A DNA stretch of 64,000 nucleotides from Pseudomonadota bacterium. Its GTDB lineage: Bacteria; Myxococcota; JACRCW01; JAFGSX01. The stretch is taken from the NCBI GenBank assembly GCA_043821645.1, contig JBDRCO010000003.1:1-64000 (forward strand), written 5' to 3'. Shown here one piece after another: positions 5,685-17,426 of the stretch. The translations under genes were made by a program, and so were the position numbers. Numbering within the stretch: position 1 is the first letter of the stretch; the number at the start of each line of letters is the position of its first letter. The notes beneath the pieces are model-generated. The model saw only the letters and a list, made by a program, of their open reading frames with translations. It did not search any database and was not told the DNA's origin.

Positions 5685-7703
5685 TCAGGGTTCGAAGCGC
5701 ATCACGCTGAGGCCTGTGACCGTGCTCGTGGGCCTGTCCTTCATGAGCACATAGATCGAGTCGCTGCCCCCCGCGACCAGGATCGGGAACGATCTGATCG
5801 ACCCACCACGGCTGGTCGCGATCGTGACGTGGTGCCAGCTATCCACGTCGTCCGGCGCATCACCAGCGGCGATCATGTGGAGCGCGTAGGACTCCAGGCC
5901 GGTGCTCAGCAGCACCAGATCGCCTCTGGCGGTCACCGTGCCGTCGATGATCTGGTAGCTCGCCGCGCCAACCTGGCCCGTGATGTCCAGGCAGTCCGTG
6001 GCGCCGTCGTGGTCGGCGTCGTCGCACCACATCGCGTTCACCGATCCCGTGCCGTAGGCGATACCTCCTATGCCCCAGGGCAGGATGCCACGCCACTCGG
6101 CGTCCGCGGTCACCGTGCTCACCTCTCGTTCCGGCAGCCTGTCCTGATTCGCGTCGTCGTGCAGCCGCTTGTACATCGTCGCCACGGTACGTTTTCGGGC
6201 CAGGAGCATGCCCGCGTAGTAGCGCGTGGGAATACAGGGGGCGGGCGCACACTGGCTGTAGGAATAAGGCAGCACCGCCGTCATCGCGGCCTGGGTTTGC
6301 GTCAGGGTGTCGTGGGCGGTGTTGAGTCCAACCGTGCACGAGTCCGCGAACTGTACGGAGTTGAAGCATCGCGACAGGCGCCCTGTGGTGGGCGTGGTGG
6401 CGTCCTGACCGGCCAACCAGTAGTTCGAGCCGGTGTAGAACTGTCCCTCGGTGAGGGTCTGGATCGATGCGATGGAGCTGAGTTCGGCACTGGCGACCAC
6501 GGAGTTGATCCAGTTGCCGGTGGACCAGTCGACGGTCCCGGTCGAGGTATCGATCACGCCGAGAACAGGTCCCGCTGAGGCGGTCGCCGCGGCGAGTCCT
6601 CCGCCCATCGTGGTCCCCTCGCCGATCTGGACCGGCCCCCAGCGAGTGGTGTCGCTGGCACCGACCTCGAACACGCCGGTGACGTCGAGGGCCAGGCAGG
6701 TGACCCTCCCCGACGACGCATCCTGGTGCCAGTTGGCCAGGGCCAGGTACTTGCCGCTGCGATTCTCGAAGTCGGCGGCCGGGGGGTCCACGGACCAGGC
6801 GTCGCAGCCACAGTCCCCGCAGTCCAGGTCAAGGGTGCTACTGGTCTTGCCCACGCACGTGCCAGCCAGGCAGAAGTTGGGCAGGGAGACCGCGCCCCCC
6901 AGATCACAGGTCTCGAAGTCCGGTCCGGTGGAATAGCGGCAGTCCAGGGTGGCGTGGCAGGTGCCTCCGGTCTTGCACTGCGGGGCGGGCTGGCAGTTGG
7001 CGTCGTTGGCGGTGAACTGACAGCCCAGCACTGCGTCACAGGTGTCATCGGTGCAGTCAACGCCGTCGCTGCACTGGCTGTGAATCGGCGTGAACTGGCA
7101 GTCGAGGGTGGAGTGGCAGGTGTCTGCCGTGCAATCGACGTCGTCATTGCAGTTGGCGTTGTTGGGAGTGAACACGCAGCCCGTCGCCGTGCACACATCA
7201 TCGGTGCAGTCGACGCTGTCATCGCAGGCCGTGTTGCTGGTGGCGAACACGCAGTGGCCGTCTTCACAATAGTCGAGCGTGCAGGCCACGTTGTCATTGC
7301 ACTCGTTGCCGGTCGGGGTGCACTCGGGCGCCGCACTGTCGGCAACCGCTGTGTCGGGGACGGTGGCGTCCGCAACGAACGCGTCCGTGGCGATGATGTC
7401 CGTGGCTCCGAGGTCACTGGCCGCGACCTGGTCCGCGGTCTGGAGATCTGTGGCCGCAGCATCGAGGGGAGCGTTCTGGTCCGCGCTGGCTGCGTCCTGC
7501 ATCGCGGCAGTGTCGGTCGTCGCGATGTCCGTGCCCGTCACGTCCGCAGCCAGGGCGTCCAGCGAGCTGGCATCGCCGGTGATGGTCGAGCGGTCGCGGC
7601 CACTGCTCCCTCCGTCGTCACCCGCGGGCTCGGGGCCACACTGGCAGGCACCGACGCAGCACAGCAGGGTGACGAAGCTGATTCTCAGCGGGCGGGTACG
7701 CAT
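5685..7703 (-). CDS. Cys-rich exported/lipoprotein with CDDxxxCTxDxC repeats
   Basis: Signal ending VGACQCG, Asp/Ala/Thr-rich linker, four repeats (CNDNVACTLDYC, CDDSVDCTDDVC, CNDDVDCTADTC, CSDGVDCTDDTC), beta-rich C-terminus. ATG 7703 preferred. Confidence 0.75.
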   Translation of the reverse strand: MRTRPLRISFVTLLCCVGACQCGPEPAGDDGGSSGRDRSTITGDASSLDALAADVTGTDIATTDTAAMQDAASADQNAPLDAAATDLQTADQVAASDLGATDIIATDAFVADATVPDTAVADSAAPECTPTGNECNDNVACTLDYCEDGHCVFATSNTACDDSVDCTDDVCTATGCVFTPNNANCNDDVDCTADTCHSTLDCQFTPIHSQCSDGVDCTDDTCDAVLGCQFTANDANCQPAPQCKTGGTCHATLDCRYSTGPDFETCDLGGAVSLPNFCLAGTCVGKTSSTLDLDCGDCGCDAWSVDPPAADFENRSGKYLALANWHQDASSGRVTCLALDVTGVFEVGASDTTRWGPVQIGEGTTMGGGLAAATASAGPVLGVIDTSTGTVDWSTGNWINSVVASAELSSIASIQTLTEGQFYTGSNYWLAGQDATTPTTGRLSRCFNSVQFADSCTVGLNTAHDTLTQTQAAMTAVLPYSYSQCAPAPCIPTRYYAGMLLARKRTVATMYKRLHDDANQDRLPEREVSTVTADAEWRGILPWGIGGIAYGTGSVNAMWCDDADHDGATDCLDITGQVGAASYQIIDGTVTARGDLVLLSTGLESYALHMIAAGDAPDDVDSWHHVTIATSRGGSIRSFPILVAGGSDSIYVLMKDRPTSTVTGLSVMRFEP

Positions 7704-7818
7704 GATTTCCCCCGAACGAAGTCGGAATGGTTGAAGAACAGGTGGTGAGAACCTTACCACTCCGGGTGTCTTGATTCCCGCGAAAACGCAGCGCAGCGCG
7801 GGTTGCAGGTGGCCTCGG

Positions 7819-8364
7819 TCAGTCCACCAGCAAGAAGGCGTAGCGGTTCATCTCGTCGCTGGTGGTGCGCAGCACTTCGATGGGCAGGCCCGCCCGCCGC
7901 GCGGTGCCAAACACGTCGATGGCCATGGCCTCCGGGCTGGGCCTCATGCGCTGGGGATCCGTGCAGCCCCCGCGGCGCGGAGCGCAGTCCTGGCACAGGT
8001 TGCAGCTGTCCAGGAACAGCAGGAAGGCTTTGGGAAACCCTGCCAGGAACACGTCGCGCTCGAGAGCCAGCAGCCCGGTGTTGACCTCGCGAGTCCAGGC
8101 GTGGCGGTCTCGTGGATGGTCGACCTTTCGTGCGAAGTGCAGGATCAGCGCGTTGCTGTAATCGTCCAGAAAGGCGCGGCACTCGGCCACCGACGGGGTA
8201 CTGGGCGGGCAGCAGGCCCGGTGTCCGTATTCCGGACAGCCATACATGCATTTCATGCGCACCCACTGCGCCGTGGTGATGTCCGATGGGTGTAGCCAGC
8301 GATGGTCGGGGACTGCGTGCTGCGCCAGCAACTGATCCATCGCTTCCTGGTCGATGCTGGCCAC
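7819..8364 (-). CDS. DUF2284-like predicted metal-binding protein
   Basis: WVRMKCMYGCPEYG..CCPP, CNLCQDC, RPSPEAMAIDVF; GTG at 8364 after GGGAGG. Confidence 0.85.
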   Translation of the reverse strand: MASIDQEAMDQLLAQHAVPDHRWLHPSDITTAQWVRMKCMYGCPEYGHRACCPPSTPSVAECRAFLDDYSNALILHFARKVDHPRDRHAWTREVNTGLLALERDVFLAGFPKAFLLFLDSCNLCQDCAPRRGGCTDPQRMRPSPEAMAIDVFGTARRAGLPIEVLRTTSDEMNRYAFLLVD

Positions 8365-8548
8365 GGGACCTCCCTGCACATGATCGCACAACAAGACTAT
8401 CAGGCCACCAACCGAGTGGTCTTTGCGCACACACAGGGGACAGGCCTTGATCGTGATCCTGCCGGGATTGTCAGAGAGGTCAGGTTTTGTCCACAGACCC
8501 GTGTTGGCTCGCTATATTGGCCACTCCACGCGACCTGGAGGAGAGCGG

Positions 8549-8863
8549 ATGCAGGACGCTGACCGCCTGGTGCAGCAGCGCGATCTCGTGACCCGGCACA
8601 TCGAGCAGGAGACCGTGCTGGTGCCGGTGTGCGCTGGCGTTGCCGACCTCGAGGCCATCTACACCCTCAACGCAGTGGGCACCGTGGTGTGGGAGTGCCT
8701 CGATGGCTCGCGCACTGTGTCGCAGATCGTCGACGAGGTGGTCGCACGCTTCGAGGTGGAAGCCGCGCTCGCTCGGCAGGATGTCGAGGCCTTCCTCGAC
8801 GACATGCTGCGCGAAGGCCTGGCTTGTGAACGGGGGGCTGTGGGGCGCGATGGACCTGCTTGA
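8549..8863 (+). CDS. PqqD-family RiPP recognition element (RRE)
   Basis: ETVLVPV..IYTLNAVGTVVWECLDGSRTVSQIV..FEV..ARQDVEAFL; GGAGGA SD then ATG 8549. Confidence 0.92.
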   Translation: MQDADRLVQQRDLVTRHIEQETVLVPVCAGVADLEAIYTLNAVGTVVWECLDGSRTVSQIVDEVVARFEVEAALARQDVEAFLDDMLREGLACERGAVGRDGPA

Positions 8864-10001
8864 CTACGGCGCGTTCGGGGCGCGCATGCGCGCGTTACTC
8901 AACACGAAACGCATCCCACTCGGTGGCACCTTCGAGGTCACCGGGCGCTGCCCGCTGCGCTGCGGCCACTGCTACAACCGCGAGCCCCTGACCGCGCGCG
9001 AGCGCGACGAGCCCAGCCTGTCCCTGGCCCAGCAGTGCCGCATCGTCGACGAGCTGGTCGACGCGGGTTGCCTGTGGCTGCTGTTCACGGGTGGCGAGAT
9101 CTTCTCCCGGCCCGACTTCATGGACTTCTACCTGCATGCGCGTCGTCGTGGACTGCTCATCACTCTGTTTACCAGCGGGGTGCTGATCACCGATGAGATC
9201 GCTGACACGCTCGTTCGGCATCGACCCCTGCGTATCGAGATCACGCTGAGCGGTTCGAACCCCGAGGTTCACGAGAAAGTCACGGGCGTGGCGGGATCCT
9301 TCGAGCGATGCCTGCGCGGCATCCACCTGCTCAAGGCGCGTGATCTCCCCCTGGTTCTGAAGACGACCGTGACCCGGGACAACGTCGAGGACCTGCCTGC
9401 GATACAGGTGCTGGCCGAGCAGACCCTGGGCCTGCCGCACCGCTTCGATGCCATGCTGAATGGACGCCTCGACGTCGCGGGCGCGCCGCTGGAGCTGCGC
9501 CTGCGCGAGGACGAGGTAGTGGCGCTCGACGTCGGAGACGAGCGCCGCCGGGGCGAGTGGGTGGACTTCGCAGCTCGCTACCTTGGTGCCGAACATGCGG
9601 GGACTTCGAGTGGGACCTTGTACGGCTGCGGCGCCGGCGTGCACAGCTTCGCCATCGACCCCTGGGGAGGGCTCAAGCTCTGCACCCTGTCCCGGCAGGC
9701 CTGCTACGACCTGCACCAGGGCTCCTTTGCCGATGGCTGGAAGGCCCTGGTGAACCTGCGCCAGCAGCCCGCTGTCGAGGGTGCGATGTGCACGGCTTGT
9801 TCGCTACGCTCCATGTGCGAGAGCTGCCCGGCGGTGGCCGAGCTCGAGCACGGCGAGGCCCGCGTTCGTTCCGAGTTTCACTGCAGCGTCGCGCACGGGC
9901 GGGCGCGAGGGCTCGACCTGGCGGTCGAGGGTCACGGTCCCTGTTCTCATTGCCCACCCGACGATGGTGGCGTTCGAAAGTCCAGGAGTGCGGTCGCATG
10001 A
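8850..10001 (+). CDS. Radical SAM/SPASM peptide maturase
   Basis: CPLRCGHCY, FTGGE, and SPASM motifs CGAG..IDPWG..LC, CTACSLRSMCESCP..FHC; ATG 8850 overlaps the pqqD stop. Confidence 0.93.
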   Translation: MDLLDYGAFGARMRALLNTKRIPLGGTFEVTGRCPLRCGHCYNREPLTARERDEPSLSLAQQCRIVDELVDAGCLWLLFTGGEIFSRPDFMDFYLHARRRGLLITLFTSGVLITDEIADTLVRHRPLRIEITLSGSNPEVHEKVTGVAGSFERCLRGIHLLKARDLPLVLKTTVTRDNVEDLPAIQVLAEQTLGLPHRFDAMLNGRLDVAGAPLELRLREDEVVALDVGDERRRGEWVDFAARYLGAEHAGTSSGTLYGCGAGVHSFAIDPWGGLKLCTLSRQACYDLHQGSFADGWKALVNLRQQPAVEGAMCTACSLRSMCESCPAVAELEHGEARVRSEFHCSVAHGRARGLDLAVEGHGPCSHCPPDDGGVRKSRSAVA

Positions 10002-10183
10002 CGAGCAAGCACGACGGCTCGAAACAGCCGGAGCCGCGTCTCCCTTACGAGGCGCCACGCCTGAGCAAGGTGAAGCTGAGGCCCGAAGAGGCCGTGCTCG
10101 GCGGGTGCAAGACCGCGTCGGCGGCCGGGCCAGCTCAGCCCACCTGCGCGTTCCCTGATGCCTGCATCACGTCGGGATCCTGA
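9998..10183 (+). CDS. Putative RiPP precursor peptide (61 aa)
   Basis: MTSKHDGSKQPEPRLPYEAPRLSKVKLRPEEAVLGGCKTASAAGPAQPTCAFPDACITSGS; AGGAG SD at 9984-9988; ATGA overlap with the rSAM stop and TGATG overlap with the next gene; YxxPxL leader motif. Confidence 0.85.
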   Translation: MTSKHDGSKQPEPRLPYEAPRLSKVKLRPEEAVLGGCKTASAAGPAQPTCAFPDACITSGS

Positions 10184-11115
10184 TGCAGAGGGGGCAGCAA
10201 CTCATGGCATTCCGAGGGGACCTAGCCTGCTCGGGACTGAACATCGGCGGACTTCAGGTCGCGATTCACCACGATCCCTCCTGCGGCATCGATTTTGGCG
10301 GTGCTGCCCGCGCCTTCGCGCCCTCGGACGCGCCACCGGACCTCGATGTTGACCTGCAGCTGACCGATGTTGTGGATGAACCGCAGGGCGTCGTGCGCTT
10401 TGACTCGGGCGCGACCTGGAGGCTGCTCGAGGACGACGGTGAGCGGGTCATCCGGCTTGGCCTGCCCGGGGATGCAGGGCTCCCGCACGCGGTTCTGAGG
10501 CTGGATCAAGGTCGCCGCACGGGCACCCTGCAGGTGGCTCGCTCCAGGATCGGCCTCAACGGCGCACTCCGGGTCCTCGAGTACCCGCTGGATGAGCTGC
10601 TGTGGGTCCTACTGCTGGCTCGCCACCAGGGTCTGCTGCTGCACGCGCTCGGCGGCGTGGATGCCCGGGGGCAAGGCTTTGTCTGCGCGGGTGTGTCCGG
10701 CGCTGGAAAGTCCACCCTGGCCCGTCTGTGGAATCCCCAGCACCCTGCGACCGTGCTCAGCGATGACCGGGTGATCGTGCGGCTCGTCGACGGAAGACCG
10801 TGGATTCACGGCACGCCCTGGCACGGCGAGGATGAACTGGCCAGTGCGCAGTCGGCACCTCTGGCGCGCGTGTATTTCATCGAGCAGGCGGACCGCGATG
10901 AGCTGGTCGAGCTGTCCGCGGCCCAGGCCATGGCGCGCTTGCTGGCCCTGAGCTTCTTGCCCTTCTTCAGCGCCGAGGATCTGGGGGCCTGTGCGGACCT
11001 GGCGGCCGTGGTGGCCCGCCAGCGGAGGTGCCAGGTGCTTCGCTTCACGCCCTCGGCGAGCGCGTGGCAGCTGGTCGACGACGATCTGGGGCGGGTATCG
11101 GGTAGCCAGGCATGA
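10183..11115 (+). CDS. HPr-kinase-like P-loop kinase (lasso-kinase/ScmC-like)
   Basis: LLLHA, GVSGAGKST, LSDDRVIVR, HGTPWHG: a His-Lys-Asp-Asp arrangement. Confidence 0.8.
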   Translation: MQRGQQLMAFRGDLACSGLNIGGLQVAIHHDPSCGIDFGGAARAFAPSDAPPDLDVDLQLTDVVDEPQGVVRFDSGATWRLLEDDGERVIRLGLPGDAGLPHAVLRLDQGRRTGTLQVARSRIGLNGALRVLEYPLDELLWVLLLARHQGLLLHALGGVDARGQGFVCAGVSGAGKSTLARLWNPQHPATVLSDDRVIVRLVDGRPWIHGTPWHGEDELASAQSAPLARVYFIEQADRDELVELSAAQAMARLLALSFLPFFSAEDLGACADLAAVVARQRRCQVLRFTPSASAWQLVDDDLGRVSGSQA

Positions 11116-11666
11116 CGCTGCGCCGTGATACGCCCCTGTTCGTGGCCGTGGTGCAGCAGGTTCTGGCGCGCGGGGACAGGGTGCGCTTCGTGGCCGAGGG
11201 CCGCAGCATGCGCCCGGCCATCCTCGGCGGCGACCTGGTCGAGGTGGGCCCTTGTCCCGACGCGGTCCCCCGCATCGGCTCCATCGTCCTGGCCAGGGTA
11301 GCGACCCGCGTGTTCCTGCACCGCGTCGTCGACGTCGTCCACACCGGCGCAGGTGCCGGCGTGGTGCTGCGTGGTGATGCCAGCAGCGCCCAGGACCCTC
11401 AGCTCGACCACTCGCAGGTCCTGGCCGTGTTGAGCCGCATCGTTCGCCGGAACCTCCCGGATTCGCTCCGCCAGGTGGCACGCCAGGGGCTGCAGCGGAC
11501 TCCGCGCTGGCTGACCGGGCCTCTGCGCGCGGGTCTGGGGGGCGTTCGCGCCGCTCTGGCCAGCCGCGCCTCCCGGCCCAAAATGTATGGCTGGCGGCTA
11601 CATAAAGATGATCCAGCCCGCCAGGAATCCCATTCTGGCGAGCGTCAGCGACCGGGGGCCATGTAA
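11112..11666 (+). CDS. S24/S26 signal-peptidase-like protein
   Basis: GRSMRPAILGGD (Ser), FLHRV (His), LRGD; no clear transmembrane anchor. Confidence 0.8.
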   Translation: MTLRRDTPLFVAVVQQVLARGDRVRFVAEGRSMRPAILGGDLVEVGPCPDAVPRIGSIVLARVATRVFLHRVVDVVHTGAGAGVVLRGDASSAQDPQLDHSQVLAVLSRIVRRNLPDSLRQVARQGLQRTPRWLTGPLRAGLGGVRAALASRASRPKMYGWRLHKDDPARQESHSGERQRPGAM

Positions 11667-14600
11667 TGAGTGTGCTTGCGAGTGTGGTTTCAGCCCTGAC
11701 CCTGGTTGCTCCGACAACGCCTCCGCCCACCATGGAGCTGCCTGCACAAGCTCTGGAGCAGATACACCAGCTTGAACTCGAGAAGGCCTCGCGAACCCAG
11801 GCTCAGCGCAAGATGTCCTCGCACCTGGTGCACGAGGCCAAGCGGCAGCGGGGACAGTCCTTGGGCCTCGGACTCGAAACCCTGCGAGGCGGTGTCACGC
11901 TGGATACTCGTGGCCAGGTGACCGTCGACCTCGACGCCGAAATCACTCCCGAGCTACTGGCCGCCGTGCAACGTGAGGGTGGGCAGGTTCTAGGCTCATA
12001 CCCGCAGTTTCGGTCCGCTCGCGTGAAATTGCCCTTGCAGTCGGTCGAGCTCATTGCGGACTTGGTCGAGGTCGTTGGCGTGCACGAGGCGCTTCCACCC
12101 ATGCTCAACAAGGACAACACCTCAGAGGGCGACGCTGCCCATCGCGCAGACCTGGCGCGCGCAGGCTGGTCCGTCAACGGCAGCGGTGTCGCGGTGGGGG
12201 TACTGTCAGATTCGGTCGACTATCTCTCCACAGTCCAAACCAGCGGAGACCTGCCGGCCACGGTGACGGTGCTCAGCGGCCAGAGCGGTGTCCCCGGTAG
12301 TGGCGAGGGCACGGCGATGCTCGAGATCGTCTACGACCTCGCGCCTGGTGCGTCACTCTACTTCGCCACCGCATTCAACGGCGATGCCTCATTTGCCCAG
12401 AACATCCTGGATCTGCGCGCGGCCGGCTGCGACATTATCATCGACGACGTCAGTTACTTCGCCGAACCGGTGTTTCAGGACGGGATCATCGCCCAGGCCG
12501 TGGACCAGGTGGTGGCAGACGGTGCGCTGTACTTCTCGTCCGCCGGCAACTCCGGCAACCTGAATGACGGCGAGTCGGGTGTGTGGGAGGGCGATTTTGT
12601 GCCGTTTGTGCTCGGTGACGGCACGATCACCCACGACTTTGGGGGCGGCAGCAACGGCGATGTTCTCACAGTTCTTCCTTCTTCCGTCGTCACCCTGCAG
12701 TGGTCAGACCCCTGGGGCGCCTCAGCCAACGACTACGACATTTACCTCATCAATCGTAACACCGGCGCCGTTCGCTCCTCGTCGACCGGTACGCAGGATG
12801 GCAATGACAACCCATACGAGCAGCTCGCACGAACCAGTCAATGGCGAGCCGGAGACTACCTGGTCATCGTCAAGTACTCGGGAGCGGATCGCTTTCTGCA
12901 TCTGAGCACGCACCGAGGTCGACTTGGCGTGGGCACATCAGGGCAGACCAGCGGCCACAGCTCAGCAGCCGGTGCCTTCAGCGTGGCGGCCGTCGACGCT
13001 GCCGAGGCGGATCCTTCGACGGGTGCCTTCTTCGATGCCAGCCCAGCGCCTCCGGTGGAGTACTTCAGCTCAGATGGCCTGCGCCGCATCTTCTTTGACG
13101 CTGCGGGAAATGCGCTCACGCCTGGCAATTTTTCGTCGACAGGCGGCGTGGTCAGACAGAAACCTGACCTCGCTGCAGCCGACGGAGTGGCCTGCGCGAC
13201 CACAGGCTTCGACCCCTTCTACGGCACCTCCGCCGCCGCGCCTCACGCAGGCGCCGTCGCGGCACTGCTTTGGTCCCTGTTTCCCACCGCCAGCAACGAG
13301 GAGATCAGGGCGCGCTTGCTGGCCTCGGCCATCGACATCGAGGCGCCCGGCATCGATCGCGACTCCGGTGTCGGCATCGTCGACGCCTACAGTGCCCTGC
13401 TCACCGAAGTCGAACTCATCTCCTTCGACGCCCGGCAGGTCGGACCGCGCGTGGCCCTGACCTGGCGCACCGGGCGCGAGGTGGACAACCTGGGATTTCA
13501 CGTCTACCGCGAGGACGCCACCGGCCTGGTTCAGCTCACACCCTGGCTGGTCGCGGGCTCTGCCCTGTGGAGCAGCGCTGGCCCAGCCTTCGCGACCGGT
13601 CGCGGCTATCGCTGGTGGGATGAACCCGACAGCACGAACGCACACGTGCGCTACTGGCTCGAGGACATCGCCCTGGATGGCCAGCGCACCTGGCACGGCC
13701 CGGTGGCACTGTCCGCAGGTGACAACGACGAGGAGCTGGGCGAGGACTCGGCCACGCTTGGCGAGGTCGATCAGCGTTCCCGCCAGGCGCAGGCGCGGCA
13801 GGCGCGCGCGACCTCGGTTCGTGGGGCCTTGCGTGACAGTGGTCGAAGCCACAGGGGCAGTTCCGGGAAGGGCCGGACGCAGGTTCACGCCCGGGGTCCG
13901 AATCACCAGGGCGACGACGATCTGCTCCTCTCACCATGGCCCGGCGCGAGCCAGCCCTCGGTCCGCATCGTGACCGAATCGGCCGGCTGGTACGAGGTCA
14001 GCGGCGCCCAGCTCCTGGCCGCGGGGCTGGACCCCACCGTCGATCCGCGGCGGCTGCAGCTCTTCACCGAGGGCCAGCAGCAGGCCATCGAGATCCGCAA
14101 CCTCGTCGGCGGACACCTGCAGCCCTCGTCCCGCATTGGATTTTACGCACGTGCCCTCGACACCCCGTGGGCGGGTCAGCGCACGTCGTTTCTCGTCGAG
14201 GGATCGGATCCTGGCCTCCGCGTCCGTGATCCGCGCGGCTCCGGCAACGGTGGCCGCCAGGCGAGCAGCGTGCCCTTCACGGTGAAGCAGAGCGACAAGC
14301 AGATCTACTTCTCGGCCTTGCTCAACGGCGACGCCGACAACTTCTTCGGTGCGCCGGTGACAGCAAGTGGTGTTGACCAGGTGATCGCCCTGCCAGCGGT
14401 GGACCCGGCCTTCACCGGCACCGCGCACCTGCAGGTGGTCGTGCAGGGTGTCACCGAGCAGGCGCACCGCATCCCGCTGCTGCTCAATGAACAGGCCCTG
14501 GGTGAGATCGTATTCGCAGGACGTGCGCTGGCCACCTACGAGGTCGAGCTACCCCAGAGCTGGCTGCTCGACGGCGACAACCTGCTGCACCTGAGTTCCA

Positions 14601-15970
14601 GCGCCGGGGACTCGGACATCAGCCTGGTGGCGAGCATCCGCGTCGACTACCAGCGCCTGTTGCGCGCCGATTCCAGTGAACTCACCTTCTTCGTCGACGG
14701 GGCGCGTCAGGCGCGGCTCGCAGGCTTCGGAGCCGCAAGCGTCCGCGTGCTCGATCTCGACGACGACGGCGCGATCCAGGAGCTCACGGTCACAACCGTG
14801 GGCGGTTCCAGCGGGGAGCTGCTGGCTCGAGTACCGGACAACCAACAGCACCAGATCTACGCCTTCGCGGCATCCGCTGTGCGCGCGCCTGTCTCCGTGC
14901 TGCCAGGCCAACCCTCGTCGTGGAACGCCCTGGATCCGGGCGCGGACATGGTGGTGATCGCCCACGCCAGCCTGCTCGACGCCATGCAGCCCCTGGTCGA
15001 CCTGCGCGAGTGGCAGGGCCTGTCCGTGGCCCTCATCGACGTGCAGGACCTGTACGACGAGTTCAATTTCGGTCACAAGAGCCCGCAGGCCATCCGCGAC
15101 TTTTTGGCACACGCCACGCGGACCTGGCAGATTCCTCCACGCTTCGCCCTGATGGTGGGCGATGCCAGCTTCGATCCCCGCGACCACCTGGGCTTCGGCG
15201 ATCGCGACCTGCTGCCTACCAAGCTCGTCGACACCCGGCAGCTCGAGACCGCAAGCGATACCTGGTTCGTCGACCTCGACGGCAGCGGCATCCCCGCCCT
15301 GGCCATTGGCCGGCTCCCCGCTCGCAATGCCACCGAGGCCACGCTGCTGGTCGACAAGCTCCTGCAGCACGCGTCCACTGCGGGAGCCGACTGGGCGCGG
15401 CAAGCGCTGCTGGTTGCCGACGTCGACCCGCGGCACGACTTTGCAGCAGGCGCTGCCCGCGTTGCCACCGAGCTCAATGCAGGCTTCGACGTGCAGCAGC
15501 TGGTGCTCGATCCGGCAGATCCGGTGCCCGTGCGCGGCCAGTTGCTGAGCGCCCTCAACCAGGGCGCAGGCCTGGTCGACTACCTCGGCCATGGTTCGGT
15601 CGAGATCTGGTCCCGCACCTCGCTGTTCACCAGCCAGGACGCGCGGGCCCTGAGCAACGGCGAGCGACAGCCCGTGCTGCTCACCATGACCTGCTTCAAT
15701 GGCTTCTTCCACGACCTGTACACCGAGAGCCTGGGCGAGGCGCTGCTGCGGGCCCCAGACGGTGGTGCCGTGGCCGTCTGGGCCTCGTCCGGACTGACCG
15801 AGCCGGTGGCGCAGCAGGTCGTGAATCGCGAGCTGGCCGCGCTGCTGGCGACCCAGCCTGAGATGACCCTGGGTGAGGCCGTGATGCTGTCGACGTCACT
15901 GGTGGGTGATCCCGACGTGAGGCACACCTTCAACCTGCTTGGCGATCCCAGCATGCGCGTCGTCGAGTGA
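11666..15970 (+). CDS. Secreted S8 subtilase + C25 (gingipain-like) fusion protein, 1434 aa
   Basis: Signal-like N-terminus and propeptide; VLSDS, EGTAM, SAGN, FYGTSAAAPH (subtilase); VELISFDA..LTWRTGREVDNLGF Ig-like linker; C25 motifs LYDEFNFG, MVGDASFD, AIGRLP, YLGHGS, MTCFNG, NLLGDP. Confidence 0.88.
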   Translation: MSVLASVVSALTLVAPTTPPPTMELPAQALEQIHQLELEKASRTQAQRKMSSHLVHEAKRQRGQSLGLGLETLRGGVTLDTRGQVTVDLDAEITPELLAAVQREGGQVLGSYPQFRSARVKLPLQSVELIADLVEVVGVHEALPPMLNKDNTSEGDAAHRADLARAGWSVNGSGVAVGVLSDSVDYLSTVQTSGDLPATVTVLSGQSGVPGSGEGTAMLEIVYDLAPGASLYFATAFNGDASFAQNILDLRAAGCDIIIDDVSYFAEPVFQDGIIAQAVDQVVADGALYFSSAGNSGNLNDGESGVWEGDFVPFVLGDGTITHDFGGGSNGDVLTVLPSSVVTLQWSDPWGASANDYDIYLINRNTGAVRSSSTGTQDGNDNPYEQLARTSQWRAGDYLVIVKYSGADRFLHLSTHRGRLGVGTSGQTSGHSSAAGAFSVAAVDAAEADPSTGAFFDASPAPPVEYFSSDGLRRIFFDAAGNALTPGNFSSTGGVVRQKPDLAAADGVACATTGFDPFYGTSAAAPHAGAVAALLWSLFPTASNEEIRARLLASAIDIEAPGIDRDSGVGIVDAYSALLTEVELISFDARQVGPRVALTWRTGREVDNLGFHVYREDATGLVQLTPWLVAGSALWSSAGPAFATGRGYRWWDEPDSTNAHVRYWLEDIALDGQRTWHGPVALSAGDNDEELGEDSATLGEVDQRSRQAQARQARATSVRGALRDSGRSHRGSSGKGRTQVHARGPNHQGDDDLLLSPWPGASQPSVRIVTESAGWYEVSGAQLLAAGLDPTVDPRRLQLFTEGQQQAIEIRNLVGGHLQPSSRIGFYARALDTPWAGQRTSFLVEGSDPGLRVRDPRGSGNGGRQASSVPFTVKQSDKQIYFSALLNGDADNFFGAPVTASGVDQVIALPAVDPAFTGTAHLQVVVQGVTEQAHRIPLLLNEQALGEIVFAGRALATYEVELPQSWLLDGDNLLHLSSSAGDSDISLVASIRVDYQRLLRADSSELTFFVDGARQARLAGFGAASVRVLDLDDDGAIQELTVTTVGGSSGELLARVPDNQQHQIYAFAASAVRAPVSVLPGQPSSWNALDPGADMVVIAHASLLDAMQPLVDLREWQGLSVALIDVQDLYDEFNFGHKSPQAIRDFLAHATRTWQIPPRFALMVGDASFDPRDHLGFGDRDLLPTKLVDTRQLETASDTWFVDLDGSGIPALAIGRLPARNATEATLLVDKLLQHASTAGADWARQALLVADVDPRHDFAAGAARVATELNAGFDVQQLVLDPADPVPVRGQLLSALNQGAGLVDYLGHGSVEIWSRTSLFTSQDARALSNGERQPVLLTMTCFNGFFHDLYTESLGEALLRAPDGGAVAVWASSGLTEPVAQQVVNRELAALLATQPEMTLGEAVMLSTSLVGDPDVRHTFNLLGDPSMRVVE

Positions 15971-16009
15971 GCGGCGGGCGAGGCTTGTAGGTCGTCCCGA
16001 AGACAGTCC

Positions 16010-17203
16010 TCAGAACGCGATGTGCACGTGGTCGCGGTGGCCGCCGATGGCGCCGATGTCTCGGCCGTACTTCACGCCACCGAGCGGGTCGTAGAACATC
16101 TCGGTCGGGTTCATCGAGCGCATCTCGCGATAGAACGCTGCCATCTGACTGGGCGAGCCTGCCACGTCCACCGCGCGGCCACTGTAGTGGTAGGAACCTG
16201 GCGCGTGGGTGCCGCCCGTGGTCGAGGTGATGCGCAGACCCATCTGCACGGCCCGGCGCTTGGCGTAATCGAGCTTGGCCGCGTTGCTGGCGCCCGCGCC
16301 CGGCACTCCCGTGGGACCGGTGGTGCCGCCCACCGAACCACTGACATGGATGCCCAGCTTGTTCCAGGTCTGTGGTCCCACCACACCGTCGGCGGAGATG
16401 CCGCGCGAGCGCTGGAAGGCCACCACCGCGGCGCGCGTGTTGGGGCCGAAGTCGCCATCGACGCCGCCCGGGTTGAATCCCAGGTCCTTGAGCCGCTGCT
16501 GCAGCTTGCGCACGGGCTCGCCGCGCGCGCCCTGGCGCATCACCGGGCCCGAGCCGCCGGTGCTGGTGCTGCCCGAGGTGCCGCTGCTGCCGCTTGTGCC
16601 GTTGAGCTTGCCCCAGGTCTGCGGGCCGACCACGCCGTCTGCGCTGATGCCGCGCGAGCGCTGGAAGGCGAGCACCGCAGCGCGGGTGCGAGGACCGAAG
16701 TCACCGTCGACGGCGCCGGGGTTGAAGCCGGCGTTCTTGAGCTTCTGCTGCAGGGTCTTGACCGCGGCACCCTTGGCACCCTGGCGCAGCGTCGGCTGCG
16801 ATGCAGTGGACGCCTGGGTCGAGGCCACGGCGGGGGCAGCAGACTCGATCCGCGAGCGGATGGTGTCCGAGCTCAGACCACCGTTGCTTCCCACGGGCAC
16901 GCGCTCGCCGCTGCTCACCGCCGGTCTCGCGTCGTCACGCAAGGTCGGGTTCTGGCCACCCTCGACCAGCTCCAGGCGCGGCTGCGCGGCGCTGCGTGCA
17001 GGCACCTCGAGGACCTGTCCGGCGACGATGCGATTGGGATCGCGAAGCTGCGGGTTGGCCGCCATCATCTCGCCCACGCTCACGCCATGCTGCCGGGCGA
17101 TCGCGCTCAGGGTCTCGCCTCGCTGCACCCTGTGCTCCTGGCCTGTGCTGGCGCGGACGGGGCTGGTGCTGGTTCGAACGGCGGTGGCATGGAGTGGTGG
17201 CAT
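16010..17203 (-). CDS. LysM + two PG-binding domains + putative Zn-peptidase (M15-like) C-terminus
   Basis: HRVQRGETLSAIA..DPNRIVAGQVL (LysM); two copies of LQQxL..GFNPGxVDGDFGPxTRAAVxAFQRSRGISADGVVGPQTW; SYHYSGRAVD..HRDHVHIAF; GGAGGG SD. Confidence 0.85.
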   Translation of the reverse strand: MPPLHATAVRTSTSPVRASTGQEHRVQRGETLSAIARQHGVSVGEMMAANPQLRDPNRIVAGQVLEVPARSAAQPRLELVEGGQNPTLRDDARPAVSSGERVPVGSNGGLSSDTIRSRIESAAPAVASTQASTASQPTLRQGAKGAAVKTLQQKLKNAGFNPGAVDGDFGPRTRAAVLAFQRSRGISADGVVGPQTWGKLNGTSGSSGTSGSTSTGGSGPVMRQGARGEPVRKLQQRLKDLGFNPGGVDGDFGPNTRAAVVAFQRSRGISADGVVGPQTWNKLGIHVSGSVGGTTGPTGVPGAGASNAAKLDYAKRRAVQMGLRITSTTGGTHAPGSYHYSGRAVDVAGSPSQMAAFYREMRSMNPTEMFYDPLGGVKYGRDIGAIGGHRDHVHIAF

Positions 17204-17426
17204 GAACAGCCCTCCGGGGTGCGGTGATGTCGTACCCGGGTATCGGGTCCCGTGCGCACAAGGTGCGACAAGCCCCATCGGTCGATAGGCTGATGCGAAA
17301 AATACAAATAATACAGATGTGTTAGCAGCCTTGCATCGAGCCTGTGCCGGCTGCAAGCGACATCAAGTGTGATCGATCGCACGCTGTGACGACCGCGATT
17401 CCGCGCGCCGCCCGTTTGCTCTTTGC

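Follow-up and report, generated by a model that had tools for sequence, protein, structure and literature searches.

We analyzed a 64,000-nucleotide stretch of DNA (hereafter, the window; positions 1 to 64,000 of contig JBDRCO010000003.1, GenBank assembly GCA_043821645.1), which comes from a Pseudomonadota bacterium placed in the Myxococcota by GTDB. The window carries a six-gene operon that very probably encodes a pathway for a peptide that is made by ribosomes and modified after translation (RiPP). Its genes encode a PqqD-type RiPP recognition element (RRE), a radical S-adenosylmethionine enzyme with a SPASM-like C terminus (rSAM), a 61-residue precursor peptide, an HprK-like kinase, an S26-like peptidase, and a 1,434-residue protein with a subtilase-like (S8) module and a Peptidase C25 domain. 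By analogy with better-known systems, the operon probably crosslinks and phosphorylates a small peptide that ends in serine. As judged from its sequences, the family is related to the phosphorylated lasso peptides and to the linear polyphosphorylated peptide (LPP) system but bears a radical SAM enzyme. We found the same set of genes at 10 loci in 9 other genomes from the phylum and at 80 metagenome loci, and this arrangement is far from chance.

All six open reading frames (ORFs) are open and lie on the plus strand at 8549-15970, where an initial annotation of this DNA had placed them (Table 1). The junctions that it described as translationally coupled were also confirmed: a 14-nt overlap at 8850-8863, ATGA at 9998, TGATG at 10181, ATGA at 11112, and TAATG at 11664. 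The G+C content at third codon positions is 0.80 to 0.82 across all six genes, and a Shine-Dalgarno-like GGAGGAG run lies upstream of the ATG at 8549. Both flanking genes, which encode a DUF2284 protein (7819-8430) and a LysM/peptidoglycan-binding protein (16010-17356), are on the opposite strand. Given the overlapping junctions and the orientation of the flanking genes, we treat the six genes as one block; no terminator-like site was found in a scan of 7600-16600. Our domain calls agree with the annotation in identifying a RiPP-type operon with an RRE, an rSAM/SPASM enzyme, a precursor with a YxxP leader, and an HprK-like kinase. Its statement that the operon lacks a lasso cyclase and a transporter likewise stands, since neither was among the Pfam and NCBIfam matches of the operon proteins. 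Domains of the lasso B2 protease and C cyclase were absent from all six proteins in the same searches.

Table 1. Coordinates of the operon genes, of the modules of the S8-C25 protein, and of a promoter candidate in the window
Feature	Position	Strand	Basis
PqqD-type RRE, 104 aa	8549..8863	+	Pfam PqqD 65.8 bits
Radical SAM/SPASM peptide maturase, 383 aa	8850..10001	+	Radical_SAM 75.8 bits; CX3CX2C
Precursor peptide, 61 aa	9998..10183	+	Conservation in homologues; no Pfam or NCBIfam model
HPr-kinase/PEPCK-fold P-loop kinase, 310 aa	10183..11115	+	HprK_rel_B 30.4 bits; AF2 fold match
Soluble archaeal-type signal-peptidase-I (Sec11/SipW-like) homologue, 184 aa, candidate leader peptidase	11112..11666	+	Profile matches SEC11C
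Multidomain S8-C25 protein, 1434 aa	11666..15970	+	Weak signal-like N terminus, subtilase-like module, beta-rich middle, PorU/gingipain-like C25 domain
Subtilase-like (clan SB) module, aa ~131-600	12056..13465	+	Peptidase_S8 52.1 bits, second half only
Conserved beta-rich middle part, travels with C25 domain	13466..14935	+	33-35% identity in cassette-linked partners
Peptidase C25 catalytic domain	14948..15961	+	PF01364 262.6 bits; His1309 in GHGS, Cys1343 in TCFNG
Sigma-70-like promoter candidate, weak	8490..8518	+	Consensus match alone; 1 site in 7600-16600 vs 0.5 expected (shuffles)

The precursor is among the best-conserved parts of the system. Conservation counts rest on 63 complete homologues, and residue invariance was read from an alignment of 41 copies; neither Pfam nor NCBIfam had a matching model. 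The leader contains the motif Y17-x-x-P20-x-L22 and continues to an E31-A-V-L-G35 block (the remainder of the leader reads LRPEEAVLG). The core holds C37, K38, G44, C50, C56, and a C-terminal S61. YxxP was present in all 63 precursors and YxxPx[LIVMF] in 61. EAVLGxCK or a near form was found in 52 and the CK pair in 62, and in 60 the motif is followed by exactly three Cys. Of the 63 precursors, 62 end in Ser (46 of these in GS), and the lone exception looks truncated. Measured from the first Cys to the C terminus, 53 of 62 precursors span 24 to 26 residues. In the alignment, Y17, P20, C37, G44, C50, and S61 were invariant, and L27, E31, A32, V33, L34, K38, and C56 were nearly so. The last residue is thus the sole invariant Ser of the precursor.

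The RRE protein, in which no membrane segment was found, matched three NCBIfam models below their cut-offs (score/cut-off: GeoRSP PqqD, 46.9/100; the lasso model lasso_PqqD_Bac, 45.9/80; ScmD, 42.6/100). The rSAM enzyme carries the cluster motif CX3CX2C (C34/C38/C41) and C-terminal Cys residues in a SPASM-like pattern (positions 260, 278, 285, 314, 317, 323, 326, 345, 365, and 368). In the PDB, the rSAM family profile matched PqqE (4.4e-18), SkfB (2.8e-16), and CteB (3.6e-9) over positions 6-354, and the match to CteB spanned the whole length. An enzyme with these two Cys patterns, encoded beside a precursor with three conserved Cys, is what the gene-level definition of a sacti-/ranthipeptide system describes. 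A SPASM maturase paired with three invariant or nearly invariant Cys in a fixed spacing is the signature of sacti- and ranthipeptides. The enzyme is about equally distant from AhbD, ScmE, NirJ2, MftC, and PqqE (90 to 107 bits, all far under the NCBIfam cut-offs), so homology does not reveal its chemistry.

Searches of the PDB with single sequences were uninformative for the kinase and the S26-like protein, and family profiles were used instead. The NCBIfam matches of the kinase were weak (HprK_rel_B, 30.4 bits; ScmC, 28.2 bits; HprK_rel_A, 21.3 bits), and 17 of 35 family members matched Pfam Hpr_kinase_C. Its AlphaFold2 (AF2) model had a pLDDT of 92.6. Using VIA-align, residues 149-310 of this model aligned with four HPr kinase/phosphatase structures at Z scores of 10.7 to 11.2. 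The whole model aligned with phosphoenolpyruvate carboxykinase (PEPCK) at a Z score of 13.3, compared to 5.4 for the next unrelated fold, and Foldseek agreed on PEPCK. Residues H154, G170, S172, G175, K176, T178, D194, and R196 were invariant across the 35 sequences, with D195 following D194. Two reference sequences that contain a stop codon (L103:4603-5571 and L045:7052-8851) were left out of this alignment and of the Pfam list. H154, K176, D194, and D195 match the His-Lys-Asp-Asp set reported as catalytic in lasso kinases (PMC9266682). The lasso kinases PadeK, ThcoK, SyanK, and PsmK act on their precursors by phosphorylating the conserved C-terminal Ser (PMC9266682).

The S26-like protein matched the NCBIfam model sigpep_I_arch weakly (25.9 bits), and its family profile matched the eukaryotic signal peptidase catalytic subunits SEC11C (1.7e-10) and SEC11A (1.2e-9). 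The catalytic residues of SEC11 align with S32 (Ser of SM), H70 (His of HR), and D89 or D95 (Asp of GD). All 26 family members matched sigpep_I_arch, and 14 matched the SipW model. G30, M33, H70, and R71 were invariant in the family, and S32 was present in at least 90% of members. In two members (L024 4150-4539 and L026 4690-5079), the GxSMxP motif has Cys in place of its Ser, the kind of exchange to be expected where a nucleophile sits. No membrane segment or anchor was found in the window protein. The family assignment of the initial annotation thus holds at the level of a signal peptidase homologue and is refined to the archaeal/eukaryotic Ser-His type without a membrane anchor. Its best interpretation is a leader peptidase, in analogy to the LPP protein LppS (Popov et al., Nat Commun 2026, PMC13381572). 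LppS is an RRE-dependent leader peptidase that needs LppB, and its S29A, H68A, and D93A variants are inactive.

The C terminus of the sixth protein belongs to Peptidase family C25: the Pfam score is above threshold (262.6 bits), and the catalytic residues are in place, with GHG (His1309) and TC (Cys1343) aligning to PorU and Kgp. This His and Cys were invariant in all 10 cassette-linked partners. An AF2 model of residues 600-1434 (pLDDT 69.2) gave latent PorU (6za2) as its best Foldseek match (E 1.6e-27, about 800 columns), followed by RgpB and Kgp. The NCBIfam model T9SS_sortase matched residues 892-1431 at 188.3, below its cut-off of 420. The family of C-terminal domains of the type IX secretion system (T9SS; TIGR04183) had no match in the source genome, and the control genomes gave no match either. 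C25 partners in related loci carry clear signal peptides. The LamG/DUF2341 protein of cassette locus L093 shares a short stretch with the middle part of the window protein (E 0.002).

The N-terminal half of this protein has a different distribution. Subtilase-like motifs were found at residues 520 (GTSAAAP, in which the Ser is S522), 294 (GNSGN), 180 (LSDS, an Asp candidate), and 213 (GEGT). The HGT motif of subtilases reads EGT in the window module, and the Glu was invariant in all 14 aligned relatives. In a profile search of the PDB, only the Ser-containing part of the module aligned to solved subtilases, and no sedolisin was among the matches. The module family, which comprises 4017 representatives at E<=1e-30, consists of N-terminal modules of secreted multidomain proteins and also holds further invariant E/D residues. 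A full S8-C25 orthologue was found only in the sister genus (genome G029; 64% identity over residues 7-1432), and the subtilase-like part was found at none of the 80 metagenome cassette loci. The subtilase-like half is therefore a clade-specific addition. For the "giant S8-C25 protease" of the initial annotation, the C25 half recurs with the cassette, whereas the S8 half is local to this clade. Of the Asp-His-Ser triad of subtilases, the module shows the Ser motif and an Asp candidate, with EGT in place of the His motif.

Related loci were drawn from the best 80 of at least 560 metagenomic rSAM relatives and from 401 genomes sampled from the phylum of the window. Among the candidates scored, 697 rSAM homologues were found at E<=1e-10; hundreds share 45 to 50% identity and bear no annotation beyond "radical SAM protein." At E<=1e-60, the rSAM was found in 10 of the 401 phylum genomes. 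Metagenome-assembled genomes with relatives are labeled "Deltaproteobacteria bacterium" or "Thermodesulfobacteriota bacterium," and the operon DNA occurs in groundwater, biofilm, and aquatic metagenomes; no RNA data set was among those listed as containing it. Across 92 related loci, which are mostly contigs of a few kb, tblastn found an RRE homologue upstream of the rSAM gene in 76, a precursor in 58, a kinase in 51, and an S26-like gene in 36. The commonest order was RRE-rSAM-precursor-kinase-(S26), with S26 upstream of the RRE in some loci. Greedy ORF calls in this high-GC DNA held antisense ORFs, and only extra clusters that passed Pfam checks were used. Among these neighbors, MsbA-like exporters (ABC_membrane plus ABC_tran) recurred in 16 loci and PF14907 nucleotidyltransferases in 12. 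GT4 glycosyltransferases, methyltransferases, and a Wzy_C protein were also found; none of these genes is in the window operon.

The source genome contains a second, divergent cassette on contig C87 (181837-187944; locus L121 7838-13945) in the order S26-RRE-rSAM-precursor-kinase-C25. Its rSAM is 32% identical to that of the window, its 58-residue precursor ends in TAS, and its 1,035-residue C25 protein carries a clear signal peptide and is encoded by a gene that shares 4 nt with the kinase gene. Three traits are particular to the window: the fusion of a subtilase-like module to the C25 partner, the lack of exporter and nucleoside triphosphate (NTP) transferase genes, and the second paralogous cassette in the same genome.

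The initial annotation had tentatively assigned the protease gene to the operon and proposed a gene neighborhood analysis as a check, and this analysis was positive. The middle-plus-C25 part of the window protein had a match in 18 of the 92 loci. Among loci with longer flanks, C25 was found in 11 of the 19 whose flanks reach 8 kb or more and in 10 of the 15 whose flanks reach 12 kb or more; these counts leave out L121, which was fetched for its C25 match, and include L045, where the match is only a 52-residue fragment. The C25 gene follows S26 as in the window at L087, L094, and L108; lies upstream in the same direction at L092 and L103; is on the other strand at L069, L027, L030, and G378; and sits between the RRE and precursor genes at L024-L026. 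Both C25 matches of the source genome (2/2) sit in cassettes. C25 was found in all 10 cassette genomes compared to 66 of 391 genomes without a cassette, and these genomes are kin and thus not independent. At L094 (12435-16232), an S26-like domain, a signal-like hydrophobic segment, and a C25 partner share one 1,265-residue ORF; this single case could be a natural fusion or an assembly artifact. Distance matrices of rSAM and C25 were correlated (r = 0.75; Mantel P = 2e-4; 17 units), as were those of rSAM and kinase (0.89) and of kinase and C25 (0.83). A complex prediction of residues 600-1434 of the C25 partner (10-row alignment) with the precursor (41 rows) scored 0.02 against a mark of 0.32; it was run without controls and counts neither way.

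No operon protein reached the curated cut-off of any named NCBIfam system. The closest described system is LPP (lppA-K-B-S-D-N). LPP and the window have in common a discrete PqqD-type RRE, a YxxPx[L/V] leader, and an HprK-like kinase, which in LPP acts on Ser. They also share a soluble archaeal-type signal peptidase I (S29/H68/D93 in LppS; S32/H70/D89-95 here), and the S26-like and PqqD genes occur in one operon here, the combination by which LPP loci are recognized. The LPP-type PF14907 NTP transferase and MsbA-like exporter are found in related loci (12 and 16, respectively), whereas the window operon has no N or D gene. In contrast to the window, with its rSAM/SPASM enzyme, LPP is described without a radical SAM enzyme and with a linear product. 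Its core is variable and phosphorylated at Ser3, to which LppK adds several phosphates, whereas the core here is conserved, contains three Cys, and ends in Ser. Of the LPP leader YxxPxVLxHQxIxFETxxS, the window shares only YxxPxL. LPP is reported as restricted to Bacillota, unlike the window family, which comes from a high-GC Gram-negative-type lineage and many metagenomes. The window has a PorU-like C25 partner; the LPP paper uses none of the words "radical," "SPASM," and "C25." According to the same paper, [Y/W]xxPx[L/V/I..] is the motif bound by discrete lasso and LPP RREs, signal peptidase I-like peptidases are new to RiPP pathways, and polysaccharide loci enclose the loci for paeninodin and LPP (PMC13381572).

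Phosphorylated lasso peptides (paeninodin, PadeK/ThcoK; pseudomycoidin, PsmK/PsmN) share with the window the RRE, the YxxP leader, and the HprK-like kinase. Both also have a strictly conserved C-terminal Ser, which is the phosphosite in the lasso peptides, and a nucleotidyltransferase in some loci (PMC9266682). The combination of a discrete PqqD-like RRE with a [Y/W]xxPx[L/V/I] leader that marks lasso loci is present here, with the motif in 61 of 63 precursors. However, lasso clusters contain a C cyclase (Asn-synthetase-like) and a B2 (transglutaminase-like) protease, where the window has an rSAM/SPASM enzyme and an S26-type peptidase. The SynChlorMet likeness proposed in the initial annotation is only partly borne out. 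SynChlorMet (TIGR04248-TIGR04251) and the window share PqqD-like, rSAM/SPASM, and HprK/ScmC-like P-loop proteins. All scores are far under the cut-offs (ScmE, 102.9/400; ScmC, 28.2/125; ScmF, 62.9/400; ScmD as above), and SynChlorMet has two rSAMs where the window has one, suggesting a distant relative and not a member. The GeoRSP scores are below the cut-offs, too (PqqD as above; GeoRSP rSAM, 52.7/400; TIGR04302 and TIGR04303). SkfB (6efn) and CteB (5wgg), which are thioether-forming sacti-/ranthipeptide maturases, likewise combine a SPASM-type rSAM, an RRE partner, and a Cys-bearing core. In those maturases the RRE is an N-terminal fusion, whereas the window has a separate RRE protein and in addition a kinase, an S26-type peptidase, and C25. 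PorU and the gingipains (6za2, 1cvr, and 4rbm) share the multidomain architecture and the aligned catalytic His/Cys. Unlike PorU, the window protein carries a subtilase-like module, is linked to a RiPP cassette, and scores below the sortase cut-off, and no C-terminal sorting domain of the T9SS was found in it.

From the gene content, conservation, catalytic motifs, folds, and linkage shown above, and by analogy with these systems, we propose a pathway whose steps, as written here, we hold with moderate confidence. The PqqD-type RRE would bind the Y17xxP20xL22 leader motif of the 61-residue precursor. The rSAM/SPASM enzyme would then crosslink C37, C50, and C56 to backbone or side-chain carbons, with thioethers of the sacti-/ranthipeptide type being the likeliest bonds. 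The HprK-like kinase (H154/K176/D194/D195) would phosphorylate Ser61, perhaps several times. The Sec11/SipW-like peptidase (S32/H70/Asp), helped by the RRE, would remove the leader within or just after the E-A-V-L-G block, either after A32, as suggested by an LppA-like spacing from the Tyr, or after G35, which would follow the -3/-1 rule. The product may be exported by a transporter encoded elsewhere, as related loci carry an MsbA-like ABC exporter. In the least certain step, the secreted PorU/gingipain-like C25 protein, with its intact His/Cys dyad, would cleave the peptide or transfer it in the manner of a sortase. That C25 acts directly on the peptide is a tentative proposal that we hold at less than even confidence.

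Several observations weigh against this pathway. The thioethers, the phosphate, and the cleavage site are all analogies, and LppK acts on Ser3 of the LPP core and not on a C-terminal Ser (PMC13381572), so the phosphosite here could differ. The N terminus of the S8-C25 protein is hydrophobic but has no basic n-region, and its export is thus predicted to be likely only. Neither an exporter nor an NTP transferase gene was found among the six genes or the flanking genes tested, and the sole PF14907 gene of the source genome lies on another contig (C97). As for the C25 partner, shared descent of the genomes alone could give the Mantel correlation. C25 was not found at the long-flank loci L051, L062, and L110, and cassette loci without C25 contain LamG/DUF2341 giants (L051 15154-17850, L062 13913-16552, L093 3-1874, and L099 5616-7421). 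In G276, the C25 genes are on other contigs, away from the cassette. Cassette-linked C25 domains did not form a clade in a tree of 23 domains (5 changes compared to 5.5 in shuffles), a test of low power because all "unlinked" rows come from cassette-bearing genomes. The C25 partner is not obligatory for the cassette.

Three rival explanations were considered. The rSAM might instead form C-C or C-O crosslinks, epimerize residues, or oxidize Cys, or the P-loop protein might be an ATP-dependent scaffold or phosphorylate a residue other than Ser61. An ATP-dependent scaffold role is supposed for ScmC. The near-equal distances of the rSAM from AhbD, ScmE, NirJ2, MftC, and PqqE and the conservation of K38 and G44, which equals that of the Cys residues, would fit such alternatives, as would the Ser3 target of LppK (PMC13381572). 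The three-Cys/SPASM signature, with SkfB and CteB among the PDB matches, argues for sacti- or ranthipeptide-type bonds instead, and the only invariant Ser is C-terminal, as in lasso kinase substrates (PMC9266682). We regard the alternative chemistries as unlikely, although they carry more weight than the other rivals. Alternatively, the peptide might be a ligand, inhibitor, latency factor, or covalent anchor of the secreted C25 protein and not its substrate, with the cassette controlling or equipping the protease; the initial annotation had raised the ligand, inhibitor, and anchor roles. With its fixed Cys spacing, the core is unusually conserved for a RiPP, which would suit a single constant partner more than an antibiotic shaped by an arms race; the linkage of C25 persists through rearrangements and in the two cassettes of the source genome; and the best structural match of the partner is PorU in its latent form. 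However, several long loci are without C25, and relatives with ABC exporters, NTP transferases, and glycosyltransferases resemble ordinary export-and-decorate RiPP loci. We consider a ligand or anchor role quite unlikely.

It is also conceivable that C25 has no biochemical link to the peptide and that the two are neighbors through shared cell-envelope or secretion gene neighborhoods and are inherited together. C25 is far commoner than the cassette (76 compared to 10 of the 401 genomes), the tree mixes C25 domains that are linked to cassettes with ones that are not, and some relatives adjoin GT4 and Wzy_C genes, recalling the location of paeninodin and LPP loci in polysaccharide loci (PMC13381572). 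Against such an accident of location stands the translational coupling, seen as TAATG in the window and as the 4-nt overlap in the second cassette. The C25 gene is also inserted between RRE and precursor at L024-L026, and the source genome has C25 genes only in its cassettes. Furthermore, we estimate the chance of finding C25 within ~6 kb, as in 11 of the 19 long loci, at well below 1% for 1 to 4 copies in a 5-to-7-Mb genome. A purely incidental association is therefore improbable in our judgment.

Several features outside the operon were also recorded. The flanking DUF2284 gene (7819-8430, minus strand) encodes a predicted metal-binding protein (161 bits) and is divergently transcribed from the operon. 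Beyond it, a 691-residue protein (5685-7760, minus strand) has a lipoprotein-like N terminus and many Cys-rich CxDDxC-type repeats, and it had no Pfam match at E<=0.001. Among the related loci, seven copies of a small gene of the 23S_rRNA_IVP family (four-helix bundle), distributed over six metagenome loci, directly follow the rSAM gene (e.g., L041 5035-5448). Upstream of its main cassette, L074 (3980-7650) has a C25 gene and another, more distantly related RRE-rSAM pair (30% identical). On G061:C336, a C25 gene is paired with an rSAM that is 26% identical.

The family is large, with the at least 560 rSAM relatives noted above, and each of its enzyme types is understood singly. In the freely accessible literature searched, which for LPP means the main text, we found no paper on SynChlorMet, no report of a cassette combining rSAM, HprK kinase, and signal peptidase I-like peptidase or of its C25 partner, and no product, bond type, or role in print. 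The earlier statement that this architecture has no characterized product still holds in that literature. The system joins three fields studied separately so far: radical-SAM peptide stapling, the newly described kinase and signal-peptidase route of LPP and paeninodin, and PorU/gingipain-like secreted cysteine peptidases, the last in bacteria in which type IX secretion was not detected (by the TIGR04183 search, which also gave no match in control genomes). One speculative extension, which we think has little chance of being correct, is that the cassette and its PorU-like protein are a peptide-sorting system outside Bacteroidota. The C-terminal Gly-Ser-phosphate of the exported, thioether-stapled peptide would then be a sorting or activation signal at which C25, in the manner of PorU, cleaves and transfers the peptide to a surface glycan or protein, or the peptide would be the covalent anchor of C25. 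If true, the last step in making this ribosomal natural product would be a transpeptidation of the sortase type. Given that the precursor is short and strongly conserved and that the pathway consists of five small soluble proteins, the chemistry lends itself to direct tests by coexpression and mass spectrometry. Through its conserved C25 partner, the system gives a way to approach the purpose of such peptides, a question left open by the authors of the LPP study (PMC13381572).

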